A stretch of DNA of 64,000 nt. Origin: Escherichia coli (GTDB lineage Bacteria > Pseudomonadota > Gammaproteobacteria > Enterobacterales > Enterobacteriaceae). The stretch lies in the NCBI RefSeq assembly GCF_003790525.1, contig NZ_CP033635.1; one strand, given 5' to 3'. The stretch's first letter is position 1; every line of letters begins with the position of its first letter. This document shows positions 1-14,110 of this stretch, piece by piece. Both the position numbers and the translations under genes were made by a program. The notes beneath the pieces are model-generated. The model was not told the origin of the DNA and did no database searches. It saw nothing but the letters and a program-made list of their open reading frames with translations.

Positions 1-109
1 AGCGGCGAAAGTTTACGGACATGAATATATAACGCGCAGGATTAAAGGGGTTACGCAAACCAACGTGACAACAACAGACGACTGCGACGCGTTTTTATAG
101 TTTTAGACA

Positions 110-340
110 AAAGCCCTCTACCCCTTCTACCTTAAGAAAATAATTACATATATTTCATGTTGATAGATTGGGTAGATGGCAGGTAGAAGGTACTTAAAAG
201 CCCTCTACACCCTCTACCATAATTCAGGGCATTTGTGAGGGGGTGGTAGATGGCAGGTAGAGGGCCAAAAAAGCCCTCTACCCCGCTGAAATCCGCGCCA
301 TTACTGACCTGAAAGATGATTGTGTAGAGAGGTAGAGGAG
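110..340. repeat. Array of about 10 copies of a 9-bp motif CCCTCTACC / GGTAGAGGG in both orientations; candidate iteron-type origin or regulator-binding array of the upstream island
   Basis: Motif copies read at about 113, 123, 172, 182, 201, 210, 245, 256, 274 and 331. Confidence 0.5.
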
Positions 341-386
341 GTGCACCACAACACAAAACTTTTTAAACACGAGGGTAAAAATAAAA

Positions 387-644
387 ATGCACACATCAGA
401 AAAATTTAACAATCAGAAGAAATCACATAACCGCGCCATTGACCTTACAGAGCACTGGCTGAGGGTGGCGATAAAAATCATCGACCGCAACGCGGGAGAA
501 GGATACGCGAAAGCGCATCCCGAACTGATTAGCGCATTCATGACCACAGCGGCGGCAAACTTTGCCACGCTGACACAACGGGAGATTGCCGAAGCGGAAC
601 AGGTAACAACCATCAACGTTAAAACCAGTGAGGTGGAATCATGA
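387..644 (+). CDS. Hypothetical protein (island)
   Basis: 85-aa ORF; stop overlaps start of the next ORF (ATGA). Confidence 0.4.
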   Translation: MHTSEKFNNQKKSHNRAIDLTEHWLRVAIKIIDRNAGEGYAKAHPELISAFMTTAAANFATLTQREIAEAEQVTTINVKTSEVES

Positions 645-1051
645 CAGCACAGATAGCGGCTTACGGGCGGCTGGTGGCTGACCCGCAGTTAAAGACCACC
701 AGCAAGGGGACACAAATGGCGATGGCGAGTATGGCGGTCCCCCTTCCGTGCAGCCAGGCAGATGACGGAACGGCGACGATGTGGTTATCTGTGCTGGCGT
801 TTGGCAGACAGGCCGAAGCACTGGCAAAGCACCGCAAGGGTGAACTCCTGAGCGTGGCGGGTAACATGCAGGTCAGCCAGTGGACCGGACAGAACGGGGA
901 AACGCGGCAGGGCTGGCAGGTTATCGCAGACAGCGTAATCAGTGCGCGGACAGTGCGACCGGGCGGAAAAACACGCAAAACCACAGGCGCACAGGGGAAT
1001 AAGCCACCAGCGGGAGGCGATGGCCCCTACGGAGATGATATACCCTTCTGA
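641..1051 (+). CDS. SSB-like single-stranded DNA-binding protein
   Basis: OB-fold-like N-terminus, Gly/Pro-rich linker and C-terminal DDIPF tail as in bacterial SSB. Confidence 0.6.
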   Translation: MTAQIAAYGRLVADPQLKTTSKGTQMAMASMAVPLPCSQADDGTATMWLSVLAFGRQAEALAKHRKGELLSVAGNMQVSQWTGQNGETRQGWQVIADSVISARTVRPGGKTRKTTGAQGNKPPAGGDGPYGDDIPF

Positions 1052-1068
1052 ATCAGGCGGGGAGCAAC

Positions 1069-1389
1069 ATGAACAACAGCACACCGAAGAACCGGACAAT
1101 AAGCGACGCGACAGCAGAAGAACTCGAGAGCAGGGGACTGTGGCGACGGGCTGCCAGAAGGTGGCAGGATGTGATGATTACTCTTCAGGAAGACAGGCAC
1201 AGAGAACTTGCGGCAATGAGAGCAAGGGAATGTATCAGGAAGGCAAAGCGCCCGATACCTGAAAACCGTTATGATGTTCACGCAGTCAGAAGGGCCGCAG
1301 ACAGGACAATACAACAGATGGGGCTACCGTCGCTTACTGATGAAATATGGCGTGATTACCCTGATAACGTAAATGATGACGGTTATTAA
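1069..1389 (+). CDS. Small regulator, possibly PerC-family
   Basis: 106 aa with AEELESRGLWRRAARRW motif recalled from the PerC/Pch family; memory-based. Confidence 0.3.
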   Translation: MNNSTPKNRTISDATAEELESRGLWRRAARRWQDVMITLQEDRHRELAAMRARECIRKAKRPIPENRYDVHAVRRAADRTIQQMGLPSLTDEIWRDYPDNVNDDGY

Positions 1390-1468
1390 CAGGCGGGGAA
1401 ACACGACACCAGCGGGAGCGACACGGGGTAGCAGATGCCGCTGGTGGAACAGCACAAAGGGGGAGAAC

Positions 1469-2053
1469 ATGACAAAGCTGACCATTAACCGAAAACCAAA
1501 AGGCATATACGGCACACCGCAGAAAAAGACGCAGGAGGCTGAACAGCCGGATAAAACCACACCAGCGCAAAAGCAGAGCCGCGAGCAGAAAACACAACAG
1601 AAGACGGCAGCAAAACGCAAATCAGAAAAGAGCCGGAAAAAAAATATCAGACGCGTTGAACGCCTTGCCGCGCTCTGGCCTGAACTTTTCAGCCAGGAAT
1701 CGCCCAGACCGCTTAAGGTTGGCATATTTGATGACCTGATGGAGGATATTACTGCGAGAGGTATTTCATTAGGTCAGGGAGCGCTTCGCGCAACGCTGGC
1801 GTATTATGTCAGTTCAGTGCGATATTACCGTTCCCTGATGGCTGGTGGCGTGCGTTACGACCTGAAAGGCCATCCGTGCGGGGAGGTGACACAGGAGCAC
1901 CAGTTGAACGCGGGGAAGCGACTGGATGAGATGAAGAAAAAACAGCAGGAGCGCAGAAACATGAAGGCAGAAAATAAGCATAACGGTAAGCCACCAGCAG
2001 GGCATAATATTATTCTGAAAAATGCCAGTTCCTCGGGCGTACGGAAAGCATAA
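1469..2053 (+). CDS. ProQ/FinO-domain RNA-binding protein
   Basis: RPLKVGIFDDL and YYVSSVRYYRSL...GGVRYDLKGHPCGEV closely resemble the E. coli ProQ N-terminal domain; start at ATG 1469 after a GGGGGAG SD (ORF track starts at 1373). Confidence 0.7.
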   Translation: MTKLTINRKPKGIYGTPQKKTQEAEQPDKTTPAQKQSREQKTQQKTAAKRKSEKSRKKNIRRVERLAALWPELFSQESPRPLKVGIFDDLMEDITARGISLGQGALRATLAYYVSSVRYYRSLMAGGVRYDLKGHPCGEVTQEHQLNAGKRLDEMKKKQQERRNMKAENKHNGKPPAGHNIILKNASSSGVRKA

Positions 2054-2077
2054 AACCCTGACCACATGAAGAGACGA

Positions 2078-2105
2078 AGCCGGAGTAGTCCGGCTTTATT
2101 TTTTA
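2078..2105 (+). terminator. Intrinsic terminator after the ProQ/FinO-like gene
   Basis: agccggagtagtccggct hairpin followed by a T-run. Confidence 0.6.
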
Positions 2106-2110
2106 TGGGT

Positions 2111-2225
2111 CCTTTCCGGCATGTGGACCCGTTACGGGGCGGCGACCTCGCGCAAAACAACTCCTTATGAAATTTTTACGGGAAATTCAGATCCGTTCTT
2201 CTTTTTTGTAAGTCATTGTGTATAT
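2111..2225 (+). other. Lambda-type cos site (cosQ-cosN-cosB); cosN GGGCGGCGACCT at 2137-2148
   Basis: gggtcctttccgg...gttacggggcggcgacctcgcg...tatgaaatttt...ccgttcttctt matches the phage lambda cos junction as recalled. Confidence 0.65.
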
Positions 2226-2340
2226 TGAATTTTATTTGTTCTGAGAAAGGATCTGATAAGGCTTCGTTTCGCCTGAAAAGGCAGTTTTAAGATCCTTTCT
2301 TAAAAAAACGGGTCATTTTCTTGCTGGAGGGGATGCTGGT

Positions 2341-2925
2341 GTGAGGGTTAACAAGAAAAAGCTGGCTGAGATTTTTGATGTTGATGTGCGGACTATATCC
2401 ACCTGGCAAAATCAGGGGCTGCCGCTGATATCAGGCGGCGGGAAAGGGAATGAAGCGATTTTTGATACGGGAAAAGCGATTGAGTGGTTCGCTCAGCGTG
2501 AGGCCGACATTGAAAATGAAAAACTTCGTAAGGAAGTCGACGATATGCGCGTGGCTGCTGAGTCGGATCTGCAGCCCGGTACGATTGATTACGAACGCTA
2601 CCGTCTCACAAAAGCACAGGCAGATGCGCAGGAACTTAAAAACGAGCGCGATCGCGGTGACGTGATTGATACAGAGTTTTGCATGTACGCGCTTTCAAAA
2701 CTGGCGAGACAGATTTCATCAATCATGGACAGCCTCCCGCTTACTATGCAAAGGAGCTTCCCACAGATGACCCCCGCCATGCTGGATGGCCTGAAAAAAG
2801 AAGTTGTCAGAGCCTGTAACGCATGCACAAAACTTGATGAAAACATCCCGCGAATGCTGTCCGATTATCTGATGGAAACTACCGGAAATGTGCCTGATAA
2901 GTTTCAGCCGGATAAAGACAAGTAA
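2341..2925 (+). CDS. Nu1-like small terminase subunit homolog; no large subunit follows
   Basis: MRVNKKKLAEIF...GGGKGNE...ENEKLRKEV...LQPGTIDYERYRLTKAQADAQELKN tracks lambda Nu1 along its length; GTG start. Confidence 0.75.
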   Translation: MRVNKKKLAEIFDVDVRTISTWQNQGLPLISGGGKGNEAIFDTGKAIEWFAQREADIENEKLRKEVDDMRVAAESDLQPGTIDYERYRLTKAQADAQELKNERDRGDVIDTEFCMYALSKLARQISSIMDSLPLTMQRSFPQMTPAMLDGLKKEVVRACNACTKLDENIPRMLSDYLMETTGNVPDKFQPDKDK

Positions 2926-3086
2926 CGTAGTGCACAATGACCGAAGCCAGTTTACTGACTGGCTTTCAGCGTTGCGCTGGTGGGCGTTATGCGTCAGTGA
3001 TGAACAAAAAACAATCGAAATCGACACCGAAAAATAAAACATCAAGTCATATCAATATATTGCATTGGTGGTGATAACGAATAAAA

Positions 3087-3467
3087 ATGCAAAAACTAGC
3101 CTTTTTCCGCGATGCTCCCGCCCCGTGGCAGGGCACCCCACAAGGAGGACCCGCCATCACTATGGAGGACATGACCATGACCATGACCGAGACCGAAGCG
3201 ATCGGGATAATCCGCAGTATTACCGGAATCAGCCAGCAGGCTGGCGAACAGGAGGCCACGCAGCCGGACAGCGTGATAGCCGAAAATTACGCGTGTGTTG
3301 TTGCTGAGGTGATGCGCCGTGATGGTATTGAGCTTAACGGCGTGGATATGCGCAACATACGAACCAGAGTCCTTGAGTTGCTGGCATACCGTCGCCGTTC
3401 TCAACAACGGAGGGAGAGCGCGAAAAACACTTATCAGTGGAAGAAGCCGGAACGGTTGCGGCGGTAG
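3087..3467 (+). CDS. Hypothetical protein; start uncertain (possibly near 3162)
   Basis: ORF track; several in-frame ATGs with SD-like sequences. Confidence 0.3.
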   Translation: MQKLAFFRDAPAPWQGTPQGGPAITMEDMTMTMTETEAIGIIRSITGISQQAGEQEATQPDSVIAENYACVVAEVMRRDGIELNGVDMRNIRTRVLELLAYRRRSQQRRESAKNTYQWKKPERLRR

Positions 3468-4488
3468 ATTCCTGATATTCAGGAAAACCACGAATCCGGG
3501 GGTTTTACTGGCGCGGTGTACACGGTGGAACGCATAGCGTTACCTGACTTATTGCATTGTAAAAAGTTAGAAAGGCACGGCCTGTAAGATGGGATGTTGT
3601 GAGTAGTTTAAAGCTACCCGCAAATTCTTTCGTTGTGCTGGCACAGGCGGTTAAACCGTCGGTAACTGGATAATCCCCACTGGGGGAAAAGCTGGCTACA
3701 TCCCTCACATCTGAGGACTGATAATGCGACATTGCGCTGGCTGGTGGGTGAGTTGCAGATTTGCAACTCGACCATGAAACTACGGAAACTACCCGTAGTT
3801 TGGGTAGTAAGAGTAACACCCAGATTTTGGGGCTTACTCGCGATACCCAAATAAAGGGTATCGGTGGAAGAAATATCGTTTCTCATATGTAAGTACCGAG
3901 GGCGGAATTCCGCCTTCGGTTACTTATTGTGCTCATTCACAGGGAGGGGCGGGTCAAATCTCTGTACCCTGACGTCTTCAGGACTGCCCGCCCCATCGAT
4001 TTTTTATACCCGCGAAAAATGAAAAACGCTTCACGCTGGTGGGCCTGATGCCGATATGGGGAGCCGCATACCGGAGAATATCCACCAGCACGGCAACAGC
4101 AGAATAGCCCCGACACAGAAAAACCACGAATATGGGGTTTTTGTTATGGCATGGTCATGATGACCGCCCCTGCTCTGAATGGTGGAAATCACCACGCAGA
4201 TCATCCACCAGCTTCATGACGGATAGCCGGAAAATGATAATGATTAAAGCGTGTTGATCTTTGTTCGCGGTTGTTCGATATTGTTCGTGAAGCGGTGTAG
4301 TTAATGGTGTAGTTAATATCACTGTTTTTGACGGGCTTGTTATTTGCAACATAATGAAAAATAAAGACTAATTAACTAAATGATATAAGATAGTTATCTA
4401 TCATGTGGAGTAGATTGGTCAGGCAAATAAGCTCTTGTCAGCGGCAGGGCGTTCTGCCGATAACCGTAACCGAAGATGATAACTGACA

Positions 4489-4809
4489 ATGGGTAAAACG
4501 AACGACTGGCTGGACTTTGATCAACTGGCGGAAGAAAAAGTTCGCGACGCGCTAAAACCGCCATCTATGTATAAAGTGATATTAGTCAATGATGATTACA
4601 CTCCGATGGAGTTTGTTATTGACGTGTTACAAAAATTCTTTTCTTATGATGTAGAACGTGCAACGCAATTGATGCTCGCTGTTCACTACCAGGGGAAGGC
4701 CATTTGCGGAGTCTTTACCGCCGAGGTTGCAGAAACCAAAGTGGCGATGGTGAACAAGTACGCGAGGGAGAATGAGCATCCATTGCTGTGTACGCTAGAA
4801 AAAGCCTGA
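4489..4809 (+). CDS. clpS: ATP-dependent Clp protease adaptor ClpS
   Basis: 106-aa translation matches ClpS. Confidence 0.95.
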
Positions 4810-7399: not shown

Positions 7400-7487
7400 T
7401 GGCGGTGAGGGGGGGATTCGAACCCCCGATACGTTGCCGTATACACACTTTCCAGGCGTGCTCCTTCAGCCACTCGGACACCTCACC
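7400..7487 (-). tRNA. serW: tRNA-Ser (GGA anticodon)
   Basis: Reverse complement gives GGTGAGGTGTCCGAGTGGCTGAAGGAGCACGCCTGGAAAGTGTG...GGTTCGAATCCCCCCCTCACCGCCA with long variable arm. Confidence 0.9.
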
Positions 7488-7740: not shown

Positions 7741-7962
<222 letters not shown>

Positions 7963-8243
7963 ATCCTCTGGGGTATCACTACCGTAATTTGAACCGGCAA
8001 GATAATGCCGAAGTTCTGTAAATAAGTAAAGATTTGCGCGCTAAATCGCAACAAACAGGTTCGGCACATTACTCCGAAAACACACGGCTAAGCCGCACCA
8101 AAAGCGCAACGTATAAGGGAGCGGTGAGATAAACGATGGGCGTTACCTGACGCGAAAAATTCCTTATCGGCAGCGGGGTAATGAGCGTAACCAACTCTGC
8201 GACCGCAATTATAACACTCTGGGGAGAAATGTGCCGAAAACAT

Positions 8244-8948
8244 TCATTCTTGTGGTGAAAACAAGCACCGTGGTACCCAGAAATTATTCGGCAATCGTCC
8301 GAGGCGCATTTGATTGAGATAATTTAGATAATCCCGGCGGGGAATTTCGCAGGCACCAAGCGAAGCTGTGTGATCGTTAAGGACCTGGCAGTCGATAAGC
8401 TTACCGCCATGACCAATAAATTCCTCACAGAATACCAGAAGCGCCGTTTTAGACGCATTTTCCATCCGGCTGAACATGGACTCGCCACAAAATAGCGTTC
8501 CCTGGGCCACGCCGTACATACCGCCGACAAGCTCATCTTCACGCCAGACTTCAATAGAGTGGGCATGACCGAGTTCGTGAAGGCGATGGTAGGCTTCGAC
8601 CACGCCACGCGTGATCCAGGTTCCTTCTTCGCGATCGCTGGCACAGCCTTCAATGACCTGACCAAAAGCGTAATTCATCGTGACTCGATAGGGCGAGCGT
8701 TTATGAAATCGCTTCATACTACGGCTGATATGCAGTGATTCTGGCCATAGCACCGCGCGGGGATCGGGCGACCACCAGAGGATGGGGTCGCCTGGAGAAA
8801 ACCACGGAAAAATACCACGCTGGTAAGCCATTAACAGGCGCGCAGGGCTAAGATCGCCCCCCAGTGCCAGCAGGCCGTTAGGCTCACGTAATGCGCCTTC
8901 CGGGGAAGGGAAGGCTATTGAATGGCGAGAAAGCTGAACCAGGCGCAT
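8244..8948 (-). CDS. aat: Leucyl/phenylalanyl-tRNA-protein transferase
   Basis: 234-aa translation; conserved position between infA and cydC. Confidence 0.9.
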
Positions 8949-8989
8949 GACCGCAAAACTCCACGCAAGTCGGATCGTTCAATAATAGC

Positions 8990-10711
8990 TTACAAACCCT
9001 GCTTAAACTGGTAATAACGCCCCTGTCGGGCAAGCAGTTCTGCGTGAGTACCTTGCTCAATAATTTGCCCGTTGTCCATCACTATTATTTGCTGGAAACG
9101 AGAGAGCCCGCGAAGTCGATGGGTGACCATTAACACCGTTTTCTCACGCATCATTTCTGCAAGTAATTCAAGGATCTGACTTTCAGTTGTGGCATCTAAG
9201 CCTTCGGTAGGTTCATCCAGCAATACCAGTGGCGCATCATGTAACAGCGCACGGGCGATAGCCAGACGGCGCAGTTCACCACCGGAGAGCTGGCGTCCGC
9301 CTTCACCCAACCAACTGTTGAGACCTGCATCCTCGAGCAGCTTCTCCAGACCAACGCGACGCAAGATCTCCGCCAGAGCCTCATCACTACTATCAGGCGA
9401 GGCGAGTAACAGATTATCACGCAGCGTGGCGCTAAACAGATGCACTCGCTGTGGCACAACGCTGATGGTCTGTCGTAGAGTCGCTTCATTCAGGCTGGCT
9501 ATGGGGCTATCGTTAAGCAAAATCTCGCCCTGTTGCGGGTCCCATGCGCGGGTCAGCAGTTGTAACAATGTTGATTTGCCGCATCCGGTTCGCCCGAGAA
9601 TCGCTATATGTTCTCCGGCGTTTACCTGAAGAGAAATCCCTTTAAGTGCCTGTTGGGATTGCTCTGGATAAGTGAACTGAACATCCCGTAATGTCAGCGA
9701 AACACGATCGGCAACACGAGTTTGGGTATCAGGGAAGGTGACTTCCGGTTTTTGATCCGTTAAGTCAGTGATCCGTACGGCAGAGGCAATGACTTGCCCC
9801 AGATGCTGAAATGCACCCGTTACTGGTGCCAGTGCTTCAAACGCGGCTAACGCGCAGAAGACAAACAGGGCAATTAACGCGCCGGGTTGAGCATTGCCGC
9901 CAACGCCGCCAGACGCCATCCACAGCATCAGGATCACCGCTAACGCGCCAATGAGCAGCATTATCGCTTGCGACAATGCGGTGAGTTCAGATTGACGACG
10001 TTGCGATTCCAGCCACTGAATTTCGGTATTCTCTAACTGCGTGCGATAACGATCGCTGGCACCAAAAATGGTCAGCTCAGCTTGCCCTTGCAGCCAGGCC
10101 GTCAGTTGTTGGCGATACTGCCCGCGAAGATGAGTCAGATTTTGCCCGGTGCTTTTTCCCGCACGATAAAACAGTGGTGGCATAAGGAAAAGCGTCAGTA
10201 ACATAATGCCGCCCAGCGTAAAGGCGAGGGTGAAATCAAGGAAACTTAACCCGATTGTCACCACCATAATCACCACAAAAGCGCCCACCAGCGGCGAGAT
10301 AACGCGCAGGTAAAGATGATCGAGCGTATCAACATCCGCCACCACGCGGTTGAGCAATTCGCCCTGACGATAGCGCGCCAGTCCGGCAGGGGAGAGGGGC
10401 AGCAATTTGCTGAAGGTATAAATGCGCAGATGCTGCAACACGCGGAAAGTCGCGTCGTGACTTACCAGGCGTTCAAAATAGCGCCCGGCAGTACGGGTGA
10501 TTGCTGCGCCACGCACGCCCGCAGCGGGTAGCATATAGTTGAAGCTGTACAGTCCGGCAACCCCCGCAACCGCTGAGGCGGAGAGGAACCAGCCCGAAAG
10601 TGTCAACAGACCGATGCTGGCGAGCAGCGTGACAATTGCCAGCACAATACCAAGACTTAACATCCATTTATGACGTTTATACAGTGCCAGATAGGGTAGC
10701 AAAGCGCGCAT
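8990..10711 (-). CDS. cydC: Cysteine/glutathione ABC exporter subunit CydC
   Basis: N-terminal 6-TM domain plus C-terminal ABC ATPase (GRTGCGKST, LSGGE). Confidence 0.9.
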   Translation of the reverse strand: MRALLPYLALYKRHKWMLSLGIVLAIVTLLASIGLLTLSGWFLSASAVAGVAGLYSFNYMLPAAGVRGAAITRTAGRYFERLVSHDATFRVLQHLRIYTFSKLLPLSPAGLARYRQGELLNRVVADVDTLDHLYLRVISPLVGAFVVIMVVTIGLSFLDFTLAFTLGGIMLLTLFLMPPLFYRAGKSTGQNLTHLRGQYRQQLTAWLQGQAELTIFGASDRYRTQLENTEIQWLESQRRQSELTALSQAIMLLIGALAVILMLWMASGGVGGNAQPGALIALFVFCALAAFEALAPVTGAFQHLGQVIASAVRITDLTDQKPEVTFPDTQTRVADRVSLTLRDVQFTYPEQSQQALKGISLQVNAGEHIAILGRTGCGKSTLLQLLTRAWDPQQGEILLNDSPIASLNEATLRQTISVVPQRVHLFSATLRDNLLLASPDSSDEALAEILRRVGLEKLLEDAGLNSWLGEGGRQLSGGELRRLAIARALLHDAPLVLLDEPTEGLDATTESQILELLAEMMREKTVLMVTHRLRGLSRFQQIIVMDNGQIIEQGTHAELLARQGRYYQFKQGL

Positions 10712-12478
10712 TTAAATCTCCTCCTGACGATGGGCCAGCAATGTGGCGAAAGGACCACCAGCCACGCTTAATTCCGCGTAACGTCCTTGCTCAATAATCT
10801 GACCATCCTGCATTACCCAAATGACATCCCAGTCAGCAAGATCTTCTAACTGGTGGGTGACCATTAACGTTGTCTGGCGCAGAGAGGCGGCATTAAGCGC
10901 CTCCATTACGCGCTGTTCACTGTGAGCATCAAGGCTGGCAGCGGGTTCATCCAACAGTAATAGCGAACAGGGATTCAGTAATGCTCGGGCCACCGCCACG
11001 CGCTGCGCCTGCCCCACGGAAAGGCGGGCAGCCTGGTCACCAACAGGCGTATCAACGCCTTGTGGCAGGAGCGGTAGAAACTCACTGACCCAGGCGTTAT
11101 CCAGTGCTGCTTGTAACTCGTGTTCGTTGGCATCAGGTCGCGCCAGTAGTACGTTATCCCGTAGTGTTGCTGCCGGTAATTGTGGGTTTTGCCCAACCCA
11201 GGAGAGATGTTTACGCCATGATTCTGGTGATAAATCGCGTAATTCTATCCCGTTGATTCGTAGCGATCCCTGATATGAGAGAAAACCAGAAAGCGCGTTC
11301 AGCAGTGAGCTTTTACCTGAACCGCTGCGACCAACCAACACTGCACGTTGGCCTGCTGGCAAAGTAAAGTTCAGCGGTCCGGCCAGCGTTTTACCTTCTG
11401 GTGATGTAATAAACAGCTCCTCGGCTTCAATGGTCACCGGATCGGTCGATGCTAATTCCGCCTCACCACGCTGCGGATGGGCAAGCGGGGTTTCCATAAA
11501 CGTTTTCAAACTGTCAGCTGCACCAACAGCCTGGGCTTTAGCATGATAAAACGTACCGAGATCGCGTAATGGCTGGAAAAACTCCGGCGCAAGGATCAGG
11601 GCCAGAAAACCCGCAGCCAGCGTCACGCCAGTATCATAGTGACCAAAATCCAGCTCGCCGAGATAGGAAAAACCAAAGTAGACCGCCACCAGAGCAATTG
11701 ACAGCGAGGTAAAAAATTCGAGAATGCCGGAGGATAAAAACGCCAGCCGTAGCACTTCCATTGTCCGTTGGCGGAAATCTTCCGAAGCAGAACGAATACT
11801 TTCAATTTCAGCTTCACCACGACCAAAAATACGCAATGTTTCCATGCCGCGCAGGCGATCGAGAAAATGCCCACTTAAGCGAGCAAGAGCGAGAAAGTTA
11901 CGTCGGTTAGCATCGGCAGCCCCCATTCCAACCAGCGCCATAAACAACGGAATTAACGGAGCAGTGCCCAGCAGAATGAGCGCCGCAGCCCAGTTAGAGG
12001 GGAAGATAGCCACCACAATCAGCAACGGCACCGACACTGCCAGCGCCATTTGCGGCAGGTAGCGTGCATAGTAATCATGCATATCGTCAATTTGCTCGAG
12101 TACCAGCGTCGCCCAGCTCCCCGCCGGTTTACCCTGAATCCACGCTGGCCCTGCTTGTTGCAGACGGTCGAGAACCTGACGGCGGATGGCAAAGCGGATA
12201 TGCTGCCCGGCGTGATAACCCACCCGTTCGCGTAACCAGACCACCCATGCGCGCAGTACAAAGGTCAGAACCAGTAACGTAAAGGGAAGCAGCAGGGCTT
12301 CACGGGGAATATTCTCCATAATCATATGTTGCAGAATTCGCGCCATGAACCAGGCCTGGGCAATGATCAATATGCCGCTCACAAAGCCCAGCAGACGAGA
12401 AATATTCAGCCAACGTTGGGAGATGACGCTTTGCTGTTTTAACCAGCGGGTTAACTCTTTTTGACGGGATTTATTCAT
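10712..12478 (-). CDS. cydD: Cysteine/glutathione ABC exporter subunit CydD
   Basis: TM domain plus ABC ATPase (GRSGSGKSS, LSVGQ); abuts cydC. Confidence 0.9.
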   Translation of the reverse strand: MNKSRQKELTRWLKQQSVISQRWLNISRLLGFVSGILIIAQAWFMARILQHMIMENIPREALLLPFTLLVLTFVLRAWVVWLRERVGYHAGQHIRFAIRRQVLDRLQQAGPAWIQGKPAGSWATLVLEQIDDMHDYYARYLPQMALAVSVPLLIVVAIFPSNWAAALILLGTAPLIPLFMALVGMGAADANRRNFLALARLSGHFLDRLRGMETLRIFGRGEAEIESIRSASEDFRQRTMEVLRLAFLSSGILEFFTSLSIALVAVYFGFSYLGELDFGHYDTGVTLAAGFLALILAPEFFQPLRDLGTFYHAKAQAVGAADSLKTFMETPLAHPQRGEAELASTDPVTIEAEELFITSPEGKTLAGPLNFTLPAGQRAVLVGRSGSGKSSLLNALSGFLSYQGSLRINGIELRDLSPESWRKHLSWVGQNPQLPAATLRDNVLLARPDANEHELQAALDNAWVSEFLPLLPQGVDTPVGDQAARLSVGQAQRVAVARALLNPCSLLLLDEPAASLDAHSEQRVMEALNAASLRQTTLMVTHQLEDLADWDVIWVMQDGQIIEQGRYAELSVAGGPFATLLAHRQEEI

Positions 12479-12600
12479 TGCACGCTTAGCAGGTGAGTTA
12501 TCAGAATTATTTGCAGAGCAATGTTACAACGAGGAAAAAATAAAGGCGACCCATAGTCGCATGGTGTCGCCTTCTTTACTTTTGTTACTGATTTGTAAAA

Positions 12601-13683
<1,083 letters not shown>

Positions 13684-14110
13684 TCAAATTCTCCCGTCAT
13701 TATCACCTCTGCTACTTAAATTTCCCGCTTTATAAGCCGATTAAATGATGAATAAACGCCCCTGTTAATGAATATCTGGCATGTTGTACTAAAAATCGAT
13801 GTTTTGCTTTGACAATCCCCTGGTGTTTTGCGAAAACATTCTAGGAAGAAAAAAAACAGTATTCTTATATGCGCATAATCATGCATGTAAATACCATGTT
13901 TACCGTGCTAGTGAAATCTACGTATGGCGTGGACAGACGCCATTCGTGATGTCGATAGCTGCCACAAGGCAACGGTCTTCTCACCGTAGACCCAGGCATT
14001 GCGCGCCGTGAATCTTCATGATTTCGGTCTATCGTGACGGGTAGCGACTCTGAACAGTGATGTTTCAGGGTCAGACAGGAGTAGGGAAGGAATACAGAGA
14101 GACAATAATA

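Follow-up and report, generated by a model that had tools for sequence, protein, structure and literature searches.

At the left edge of a 64,000-nucleotide stretch of Escherichia coli DNA (contig NZ_CP033635.1; hereafter the window) lies a conspicuously dense array of short repeats, and the question it raises is which process these repeats serve. The preliminary description had counted about ten copies of a motif in both orientations within 230 bp, upstream of an SSB-like gene. The count was borne out by our motif search, which retrieved 10 matches to CCCTCTACC with at most one mismatch at 114-339 (4 exact, 6 with one mismatch; 5 on the plus and 5 on the minus strand) and one weaker copy; the position relative to ssb is also right, with the addition that an 85-aa ORF (387-644) intervenes. 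The 11 copies of the 9-bp motif with its invariant core TCTACC are present in both orientations within 226 bp of the intergenic region at 101-386 and are grouped in pairs, in the order +,+ / 39-bp spacer / -,- / +,+ / -,- / single + / -,-. Our analysis indicates that a Gram-negative phage-inducible chromosomal island (PICI) very probably has its vegetative replication origin (ori) at window 101-386, with the 9-bp repeats as putative iterons for the binding of Pri-Rep. This reading is founded on the array itself, its position, the pattern of its conservation, the protein domains of Pri-Rep and the homology to an experimentally tested origin. The relevant features of the window are:

1-100 (coding 2-100), plus strand: 3' end of pri-rep (from the sequence), comprising the last 32 codons and the TAG stop (98-100); end of the C-terminal winged-helix-type origin-binding domain
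114-131 (starts 114 and 123), plus strand: iterons 1 and 2 (CCCTCTACC, CCTTCTACC), abutting, on the left side of the AT-rich spacer (motif search)
132-170: AT-rich spacer of 39 bp with 18% GC, the predicted DNA-unwinding (melting) site (base composition, alignment)
171-190, minus strand: iterons 3 (CCATCTACC, 171-179) and 4 (CCTTCTACC, 182-190) (motif and inverted-repeat search)
201-218 (starts 201 and 210), plus strand: iterons 5 and 6 (CCCTCTACA, CCCTCTACC), abutting (motif search)
245-264, minus strand: iterons 7 (CCATCTACC, 245-253) and 8 (CCCTCTACC, 256-264) (motif and inverted-repeat search)
274-282, plus strand: iteron 9 (CCCTCTACC) (motif and inverted-repeat search)
285-306: non-iteron block GCTGAAATCCGCGCCATTACTG (usually ...AAAGCC...), also GCTGAAA(G/T)CCGCGCCATTACTG, nearly invariant in 66 sequences
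323-339, minus strand: iterons 10 (degenerate, CTCTCTACA, 323-331) and 11 (TCCTCTACC, 331-339) (motif search, alignment)
355-386, plus strand: leader AAAACTTTTTAAAC and GAGGG ribosome-binding site of the next ORF (alignment)
387-644, plus strand: 85-aa ORF (phrog_1231 match), the gene that immediately follows the origin in every relative
641-1051, plus strand: ssb, the single-stranded-DNA-binding protein of the island (phrog_44 SSB, E 1.6e-38)
2341-2925: Nu1-like small terminase (phrog_57, E 7e-65)
4387-4404, plus strand: right att repeat AAGATAGTTATCTATCAT, the end of the island just before clpS (4489) (repeat search, published att core)

The motifs are short, and over the whole window their enrichment at up to one mismatch is modest (14 observed, 7.7 expected), which speaks for a chance cluster or a generic intergenic repeat of the REP/BIME type without specific function. 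The local statistics argue against it. Only four of the one-mismatch matches are located in the remaining 63.7 kb, and the exact core TCTACC/GGTAGA occurs nine times at 105-345 (241 bp; 0.045 expected) compared with 12 occurrences in the rest of the window, corresponding to a Poisson P of ~2e-18. Beyond the first 600 bp, every 241-bp stretch of the window holds at most one exact core, and the array is the single iteron cluster of the whole 10.6-kb island, which contains two further isolated cores. Furthermore, the iteron slots are conserved in 66 homologues despite diverged spacers, and a comparison with E. coli genomes and with phage and plasmid collections showed that the array is confined to this island family. 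The statistics and the conservation therefore exclude chance, and the probability of a repeat cluster without function is negligible. An Rfam scan of window 1-4500 with E values up to 1 retrieved one chance-level snoRNA match far from the array, so that no known RNA family coincides with it.

The arrangement of the repeats is that of a known class of origins. PICI and SaPI origins are described as 6-12 short iterons just after rep that flank an AT-rich region, two or more per side, in opposite orientation (PMC6092414 and the summary in PMC9371898). The same layout is found here: iterons 1 and 2 at 114-131 on the plus strand and the inverted iterons 3 and 4 at 171-190 on the minus strand flank the 39-bp spacer, and more sets follow at 201-339. 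Iterons 8 and 9 form a perfect 10-bp palindrome with a 7-bp gap (GGTAGAGGGC-N7-GCCCTCTACC), and the weaker iteron 10 (CTCTCTACA) has two mismatches at a place where relatives show the full GGTAGA core. Neither a DnaA box nor an IHF consensus nor a GATC (Dam) site was found in 1-420, and the origin therefore looks DnaA-independent, as would be expected for a self-loading helicase.

A replicase gene upstream of the array, whose absence would have refuted the origin according to the preliminary description, is indeed present. The gene pri-rep ends at position 100 of the window, and the first iteron begins 14 bp past its stop codon. Most of pri-rep lies to the left of the window. E. coli TUM1886 and two other genomes share the first 2400 bases of the window without a difference, and the full gene could be retrieved from the near-identical TUM1886 record (locus L001, 10352-12100). 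Its product of 582 aa is annotated as "DNA primase family protein" and contains the Pfam domains D5_N, DUF5906 (with the P-loop of superfamily-3 helicases) and a C-terminal Pox_D5. Residues 225-432 match the helicase structure of SaPI5 PriRep5 (7OLA, E 1.9e-13); for residues 488-576 the match is to 1KA8 (E 8.8e-7), the domain with which the alpha protein of phage P4 binds its origin. Residues 1-140 are the most variable part of the protein (42-88% identity among relatives) and contain no Pfam domain and no recognizable primase domain, and phage primase profiles align only from about profile position 350 on; primase activity is therefore not evident from the sequence. One peculiarity of the neighborhood is the "Icd-like" gene of TUM1886, a 1434-bp ORF (L001 8426-9859), at a place where relatives have icd-like genes of about 200 bp followed by several small ORFs; it may result from a fusion, from a different insert or from faulty annotation.

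The island that harbors pri-rep and the array has a size of 10.6 kb (L001 5809-16399 in TUM1886) and is located between cspD/yljB and clpS. Its gene order is int, a gene for an AlpA-type HTH protein, the Icd-like gene, a DUF4222 gene, pri-rep, the array, the 85-aa ORF, ssb, perC, a proQ/finO-like gene and terS. This is the organization of a PICI, with int and alpA, unidirectional rightward genes, a length of about 10 kb and att repeats at a PICI-specific site. The cspD-clpS site with the att core ATGATAGTTAT is listed for EcCIIHE3034 and EcCI18098 (Table S1 of Fillol-Salom et al. 2018, PMC6092414), our locus L008 is the published EcCIIHE3034 at this very site, and repeats of ATGATAGTTAT bound the island at both ends. 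Judged by its sequence, the island belongs to the Gram-negative PICIs and occupies the cspD-clpS site published for them. The exact core ATGATAGTTAT is absent from the window, which has a match with one mismatch at 4387-4397, because of a 2-bp difference from TUM1886: the right att repeat carries a 2-bp deletion in comparison with the otherwise identical TUM1886 island (AAGATAGTTAT vs AATGATAGTTAT).

The domain composition of Pri-Rep brings in a different satellite, since the array could be one half of a P4-type bipartite origin (ori and crr) served by an alpha-like primase-helicase, the island being a P4-like satellite and not a PICI. The homology of the C-terminal domain to the origin-binding domain of P4 alpha and a score of 108.3 bits against the P4-family primase C-terminal model TIGR01613 of NCBIfam (cut-off 108.7) favor this interpretation. 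It is nevertheless highly improbable, given that the 10.6-kb island contains a single iteron cluster, that the P4 type I iteron TGTTCACC was not found in 1-420 with up to one mismatch, and that both the gene content (alpA, perC and terS; no sid, psu, delta or cnr) and the att site are of the PICI type. PICIs have also been explicitly set apart from P4 (Fillol-Salom et al. 2018, PMC6092414).

Two further observations concern the genomic surroundings of these islands. A second integrase-bearing element is located right after clpA and a tRNA-Ser(GGA) gene (window 7400-7487 and on, about 7800-14000; L001 19813-26400) and encodes YfjI-family, HTH and inovirus Gp2-type genes; two mobile islands are therefore flanking clpS-clpA. 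In both E. coli L26 and EC4, a lambda-like prophage harbors an island with the pri-rep/ori module seen here; the insertion splits the portal or the major capsid gene of the prophage (L006 249-1082 / 11966-12748; L009 681-926 / 12252-13040), so that a structural gene of a potential helper is disrupted by the satellite.

Support for the origin also comes from a close homologue. EcCICFT073 was located in the CFT073 chromosome (L012), where 288 bp of intergenic DNA separate pri-rep (9242-10996) from the 85-aa ORF known from the window, and ssb and perC come next. Fillol-Salom et al. 2018 (ISME J 12:2114, PMC6092414) put pri-rep and the intergenic region of this island into a temperature-sensitive plasmid. 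The delta-rep plasmid yielded no colonies, and in the delta-ori plasmid maintenance was significantly reduced, with colony numbers lowered and not abolished (PMC6092414). For the homologue it is shown that plasmid replication requires pri-rep and is aided in cis by the ori fragment (PMC6092414). We mapped the published primers onto CFT073: the delta-ori construct ends 4 bp past the stop codon of pri-rep, and the ori-containing construct reaches about 20 bp into the next ORF, the reverse primer having been aligned by eye with a one-base difference. The tested "ori" of EcCICFT073 is therefore the exact counterpart of window ~101-410. Ten other islands, among them those of CFT073 and IHE3034, align colinearly with the window, with the invariant columns on the iteron cores, and the nucleotide identity to the CFT073-type relatives is 67-72%. 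The view of the preliminary description that the origin of a satellite island is situated downstream of its replicase gene has accordingly gained support from the adjoining pri-rep, the PICI context and the homology to the tested EcCICFT073 ori.

The position of the array also allows another interpretation, namely that the repeats are mainly a transcriptional operator set for the downstream genes ssb-perC-terS, read by Pri-Rep, AlpA or another regulator, and not an origin. The array is intergenic within a rightward operon and lies just upstream of the next ORF, one sigma-70-like match is present at 194-223, and plasmid iteron-binding initiators often autoregulate their genes. The single promoter-like match in 1-700 corresponds, however, to the level of shuffled sequence (0.8 expected), and no motif cluster was found near the alpA or int promoters. 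The AT-rich spacer between inverted pairs is origin-like, and the homologous EcCICFT073 fragment acts in cis on replication (PMC6092414). We therefore regard a predominantly regulatory array as very unlikely; a secondary regulatory, autoregulatory or roadblock role of the iterons is possible. The repressor operator set that the preliminary description had offered as its own alternative found no support either, as the island has no second cluster and the array stays with pri-rep. A terminator scan of 1-700 found none.

The distribution of the array is in agreement with an island-borne origin. Of 5426 complete E. coli genomes, 564 contain homologous regions with 67-100% identity, at 601 places that are all chromosomal, and a scan of viral contigs added 80 further loci. 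The collection of phage records contained no match to the array region and the plasmid collection one partial match only, and the array is therefore not a phage or plasmid origin. Within the islands it is kept next to pri-rep irrespective of the neighboring genes: it stays there in islands with a Nu1-like TerS, with a P27-type TerS plus TerL and capsid genes, or with no TerS, and also in those with quite different regulatory modules. This constancy bears on the idea that the repeats are a cosB- or pac-like packaging recognition site for the Nu1-like small terminase. The island does encode such an enzyme (2341-2925), and small terminases bind repeated sites. Because the array stays with pri-rep across completely different downstream modules, including relatives with another TerS family or none, and because it abuts pri-rep at a distance of at least 2 kb from terS, a packaging role is argued against. 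The cos sites of EcCICFT073 have moreover been genetically mapped as separate elements (PMC6092414), and a packaging site is an extremely improbable explanation of the array.

The replication origin proposed here is also reflected in the fine structure of its conservation. Among 66 distinct origin sequences, the mean entropy is 0.23 for the core columns vs 0.76 for the non-core columns (Mann-Whitney P 6e-12), and conservation reaches 95% or more in 52 of the 66 core columns, compared with 50 of the 174 non-core columns. The cores of iterons 1 and 2 belong to those with at least 95% conservation. The AT-rich spacer has a length of 39-40 bp and a GC content of 13-31% in all 66 sequences, with an identity to the window of just 50-62%; conservation of length and composition but not of sequence is the behavior of a presumptive unwinding element. 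Two strongly conserved blocks are situated inside the origin region and outside the iteron model, namely those at 285-306 and 355-368, the latter (AAAACTTTTTAAAC) being identical in 66 of 66 sequences. They could represent a priming site, a host factor site, a promoter or a leader.

From these elements we infer a sequence of events in which a helper phage would induce the island through AlpA and Pri-Rep would be made. Its C-terminal winged-helix domain may bind the TCTACC-core iterons, and the inverted iteron pairs flanking the 39-bp spacer (132-170) would place helicase hexamers face to face in a double-hexamer geometry. The spacer would then melt, the superfamily-3 helicase would load itself, and the host polymerase, aided by the island SSB, would copy the excised circle. 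In its core, from iteron binding to self-loading, this scheme is the one already published for this island family and for the SaPIs (PMC6092414, PMC9371898). The array marks the putative cis-acting site for the replication of a mobile island. This island exploits lambdoid phages as its helpers and disseminates accessory genes, in the present case those for PerC, ProQ/FinO and a small terminase. The stretch is unannotated in the 12 RefSeq records examined, and, given the homologous regions in 564 of 5426 genomes, recognizing the origin aids both annotation and the detection of satellites.

Our comparison of the iterons revealed a subdivision of this origin family. The three bases 5' of the core vary in concert, with CC(C/A/T) in the group of the window vs CT(G/A) in the CFT073 group, and the flank type switches between xCxTCTACC and xTxTCTACC in nearly all copies at once. 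Such a concerted change would be expected for sites that are read by one protein. The Pri-Rep alignment distinguishes the groups at just two columns, A542N and S545G, and both residues lie in the segment PLNV-x-x-F-x-KAMKP of the C-terminal domain. Based on loci L001-L092, A/S proteins were found beside C-type iterons in 37 of 38 cases and N/G proteins beside T-type iterons in 27 of 27, together 64 of 65 distinct origins. The only exception, L019 (IMGVR_UViG_3300029303_000153), combines the A/S helix with T-type iterons; it is a clean natural recombinant whose breakpoint falls within the final ~100 nt of pri-rep, and the T-type iterons occupy the 290 nt that follow. A single-sequence structure prediction of the C-terminal 110 residues of Pri-Rep was unusable (pLDDT 41), and it is from the 1KA8 alignment and a low-confidence helix that residues 542 and 545 are assigned to a putative recognition helix. 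As residues and iterons are located within ~200 bp, linkage alone could yield the association. It is hence only tentatively that we suggest, as one possibility and not the likeliest, a split of the E. coli PICIs with this one Pri-Rep allele family into two origin-specificity classes (C-type iterons with A542/S545, T-type iterons with N/G). If residues 542 and 545 did set which origin fires, co-resident islands could replicate independently and the iteron/residue pair would be a minimal natural case of initiator-iteron co-evolution, for which the recombinant L019 offers a ready-made test case of residue-set specificity.

The relationship of the array to known systems ranges from analogy to homology. 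In papillomavirus and polyomavirus origins, inverted short initiator sites lie beside an AT-rich segment and are bound by the origin-binding domain of a superfamily-3 helicase (E1, large T antigen) that assembles as two hexamers; the resemblance to the window is a mechanistic analogy and not one of membership. Iteron plasmid origins of the pSC101, F, P1 and R6K type have direct repeats of ~17-22 bp in one orientation together with DnaA boxes and often IHF or Dam sites, whereas the units of the window comprise 9 bp, occur in both orientations and are accompanied by no DnaA box, IHF consensus or GATC in 1-420. Phage P4 likewise has a superfamily-3 helicase as initiator, with an origin-binding domain at the C terminus to which the C-terminal domain of Pri-Rep is homologous (1KA8), and short repeated sites of octamer to nonamer size in both orientations. 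It differs in its need for two separated clusters (ori and crr) of TGTTCACC, where the window has one cluster of another motif, and Pri-Rep is without a recognizable P4-type N-terminal primase domain.

A closer agreement exists with the SaPI origins of Staphylococcus aureus (Ubeda et al. 2007/2012, as summarized in PMC9371898). According to this summary, they likewise comprise 6-12 short iterons directly after rep, with at least two in opposed orientation on each side of a central AT-rich region, and the superfamily-3 helicase that serves them loads itself and ends in a C-terminal winged-helix domain (PMC9371898); the helicase core of Pri-Rep is homologous to that of SaPI5 PriRep5 (7OLA, E 1.9e-13). 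The SaPI origin sequences are, in contrast, without similarity to the window, their iterons are penta- or hexanucleotides and not 9-bp units with a 6-bp core, and the SaPIs have the Stl repressor, whereas islands of the window type are Gram-negative with one direction of transcription and an AlpA activator (PMC6092414).

The closest counterpart is EcCICFT073, whose ori likewise adjoins the 3' end of pri-rep and precedes the 85-aa ORF and ssb, with colinear iteron slots, the same TCTACC core, an AT-rich spacer between the iteron sets and a Pri-Rep of the same family (94.5% identity to the CFT073 protein); EcCIIHE3034 has in addition the cspD-clpS att site in common with the window island. The differences to EcCICFT073 comprise a nucleotide identity of ~71% over the ori, the iteron 5' flanks (CT(G/A), T-type, there and CC(C/T/A), C-type, in the window), the fourth slot (+,+ / AT / -,+ in CFT073 and +,+ / AT / -,- in the window), the Pri-Rep residues (N/G compared with A542/S545) and the accessory module, which contains capsid-related genes in EcCICFT073 and ProQ/FinO and the Nu1-like TerS in the window island. 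The array belongs to an origin type that was described in 2018, together with functional tests on a close homologue, and it introduces no new principle; compared with what has been described for this island family (PMC6092414), the possibly new point is the two-class pattern of iterons and initiators.
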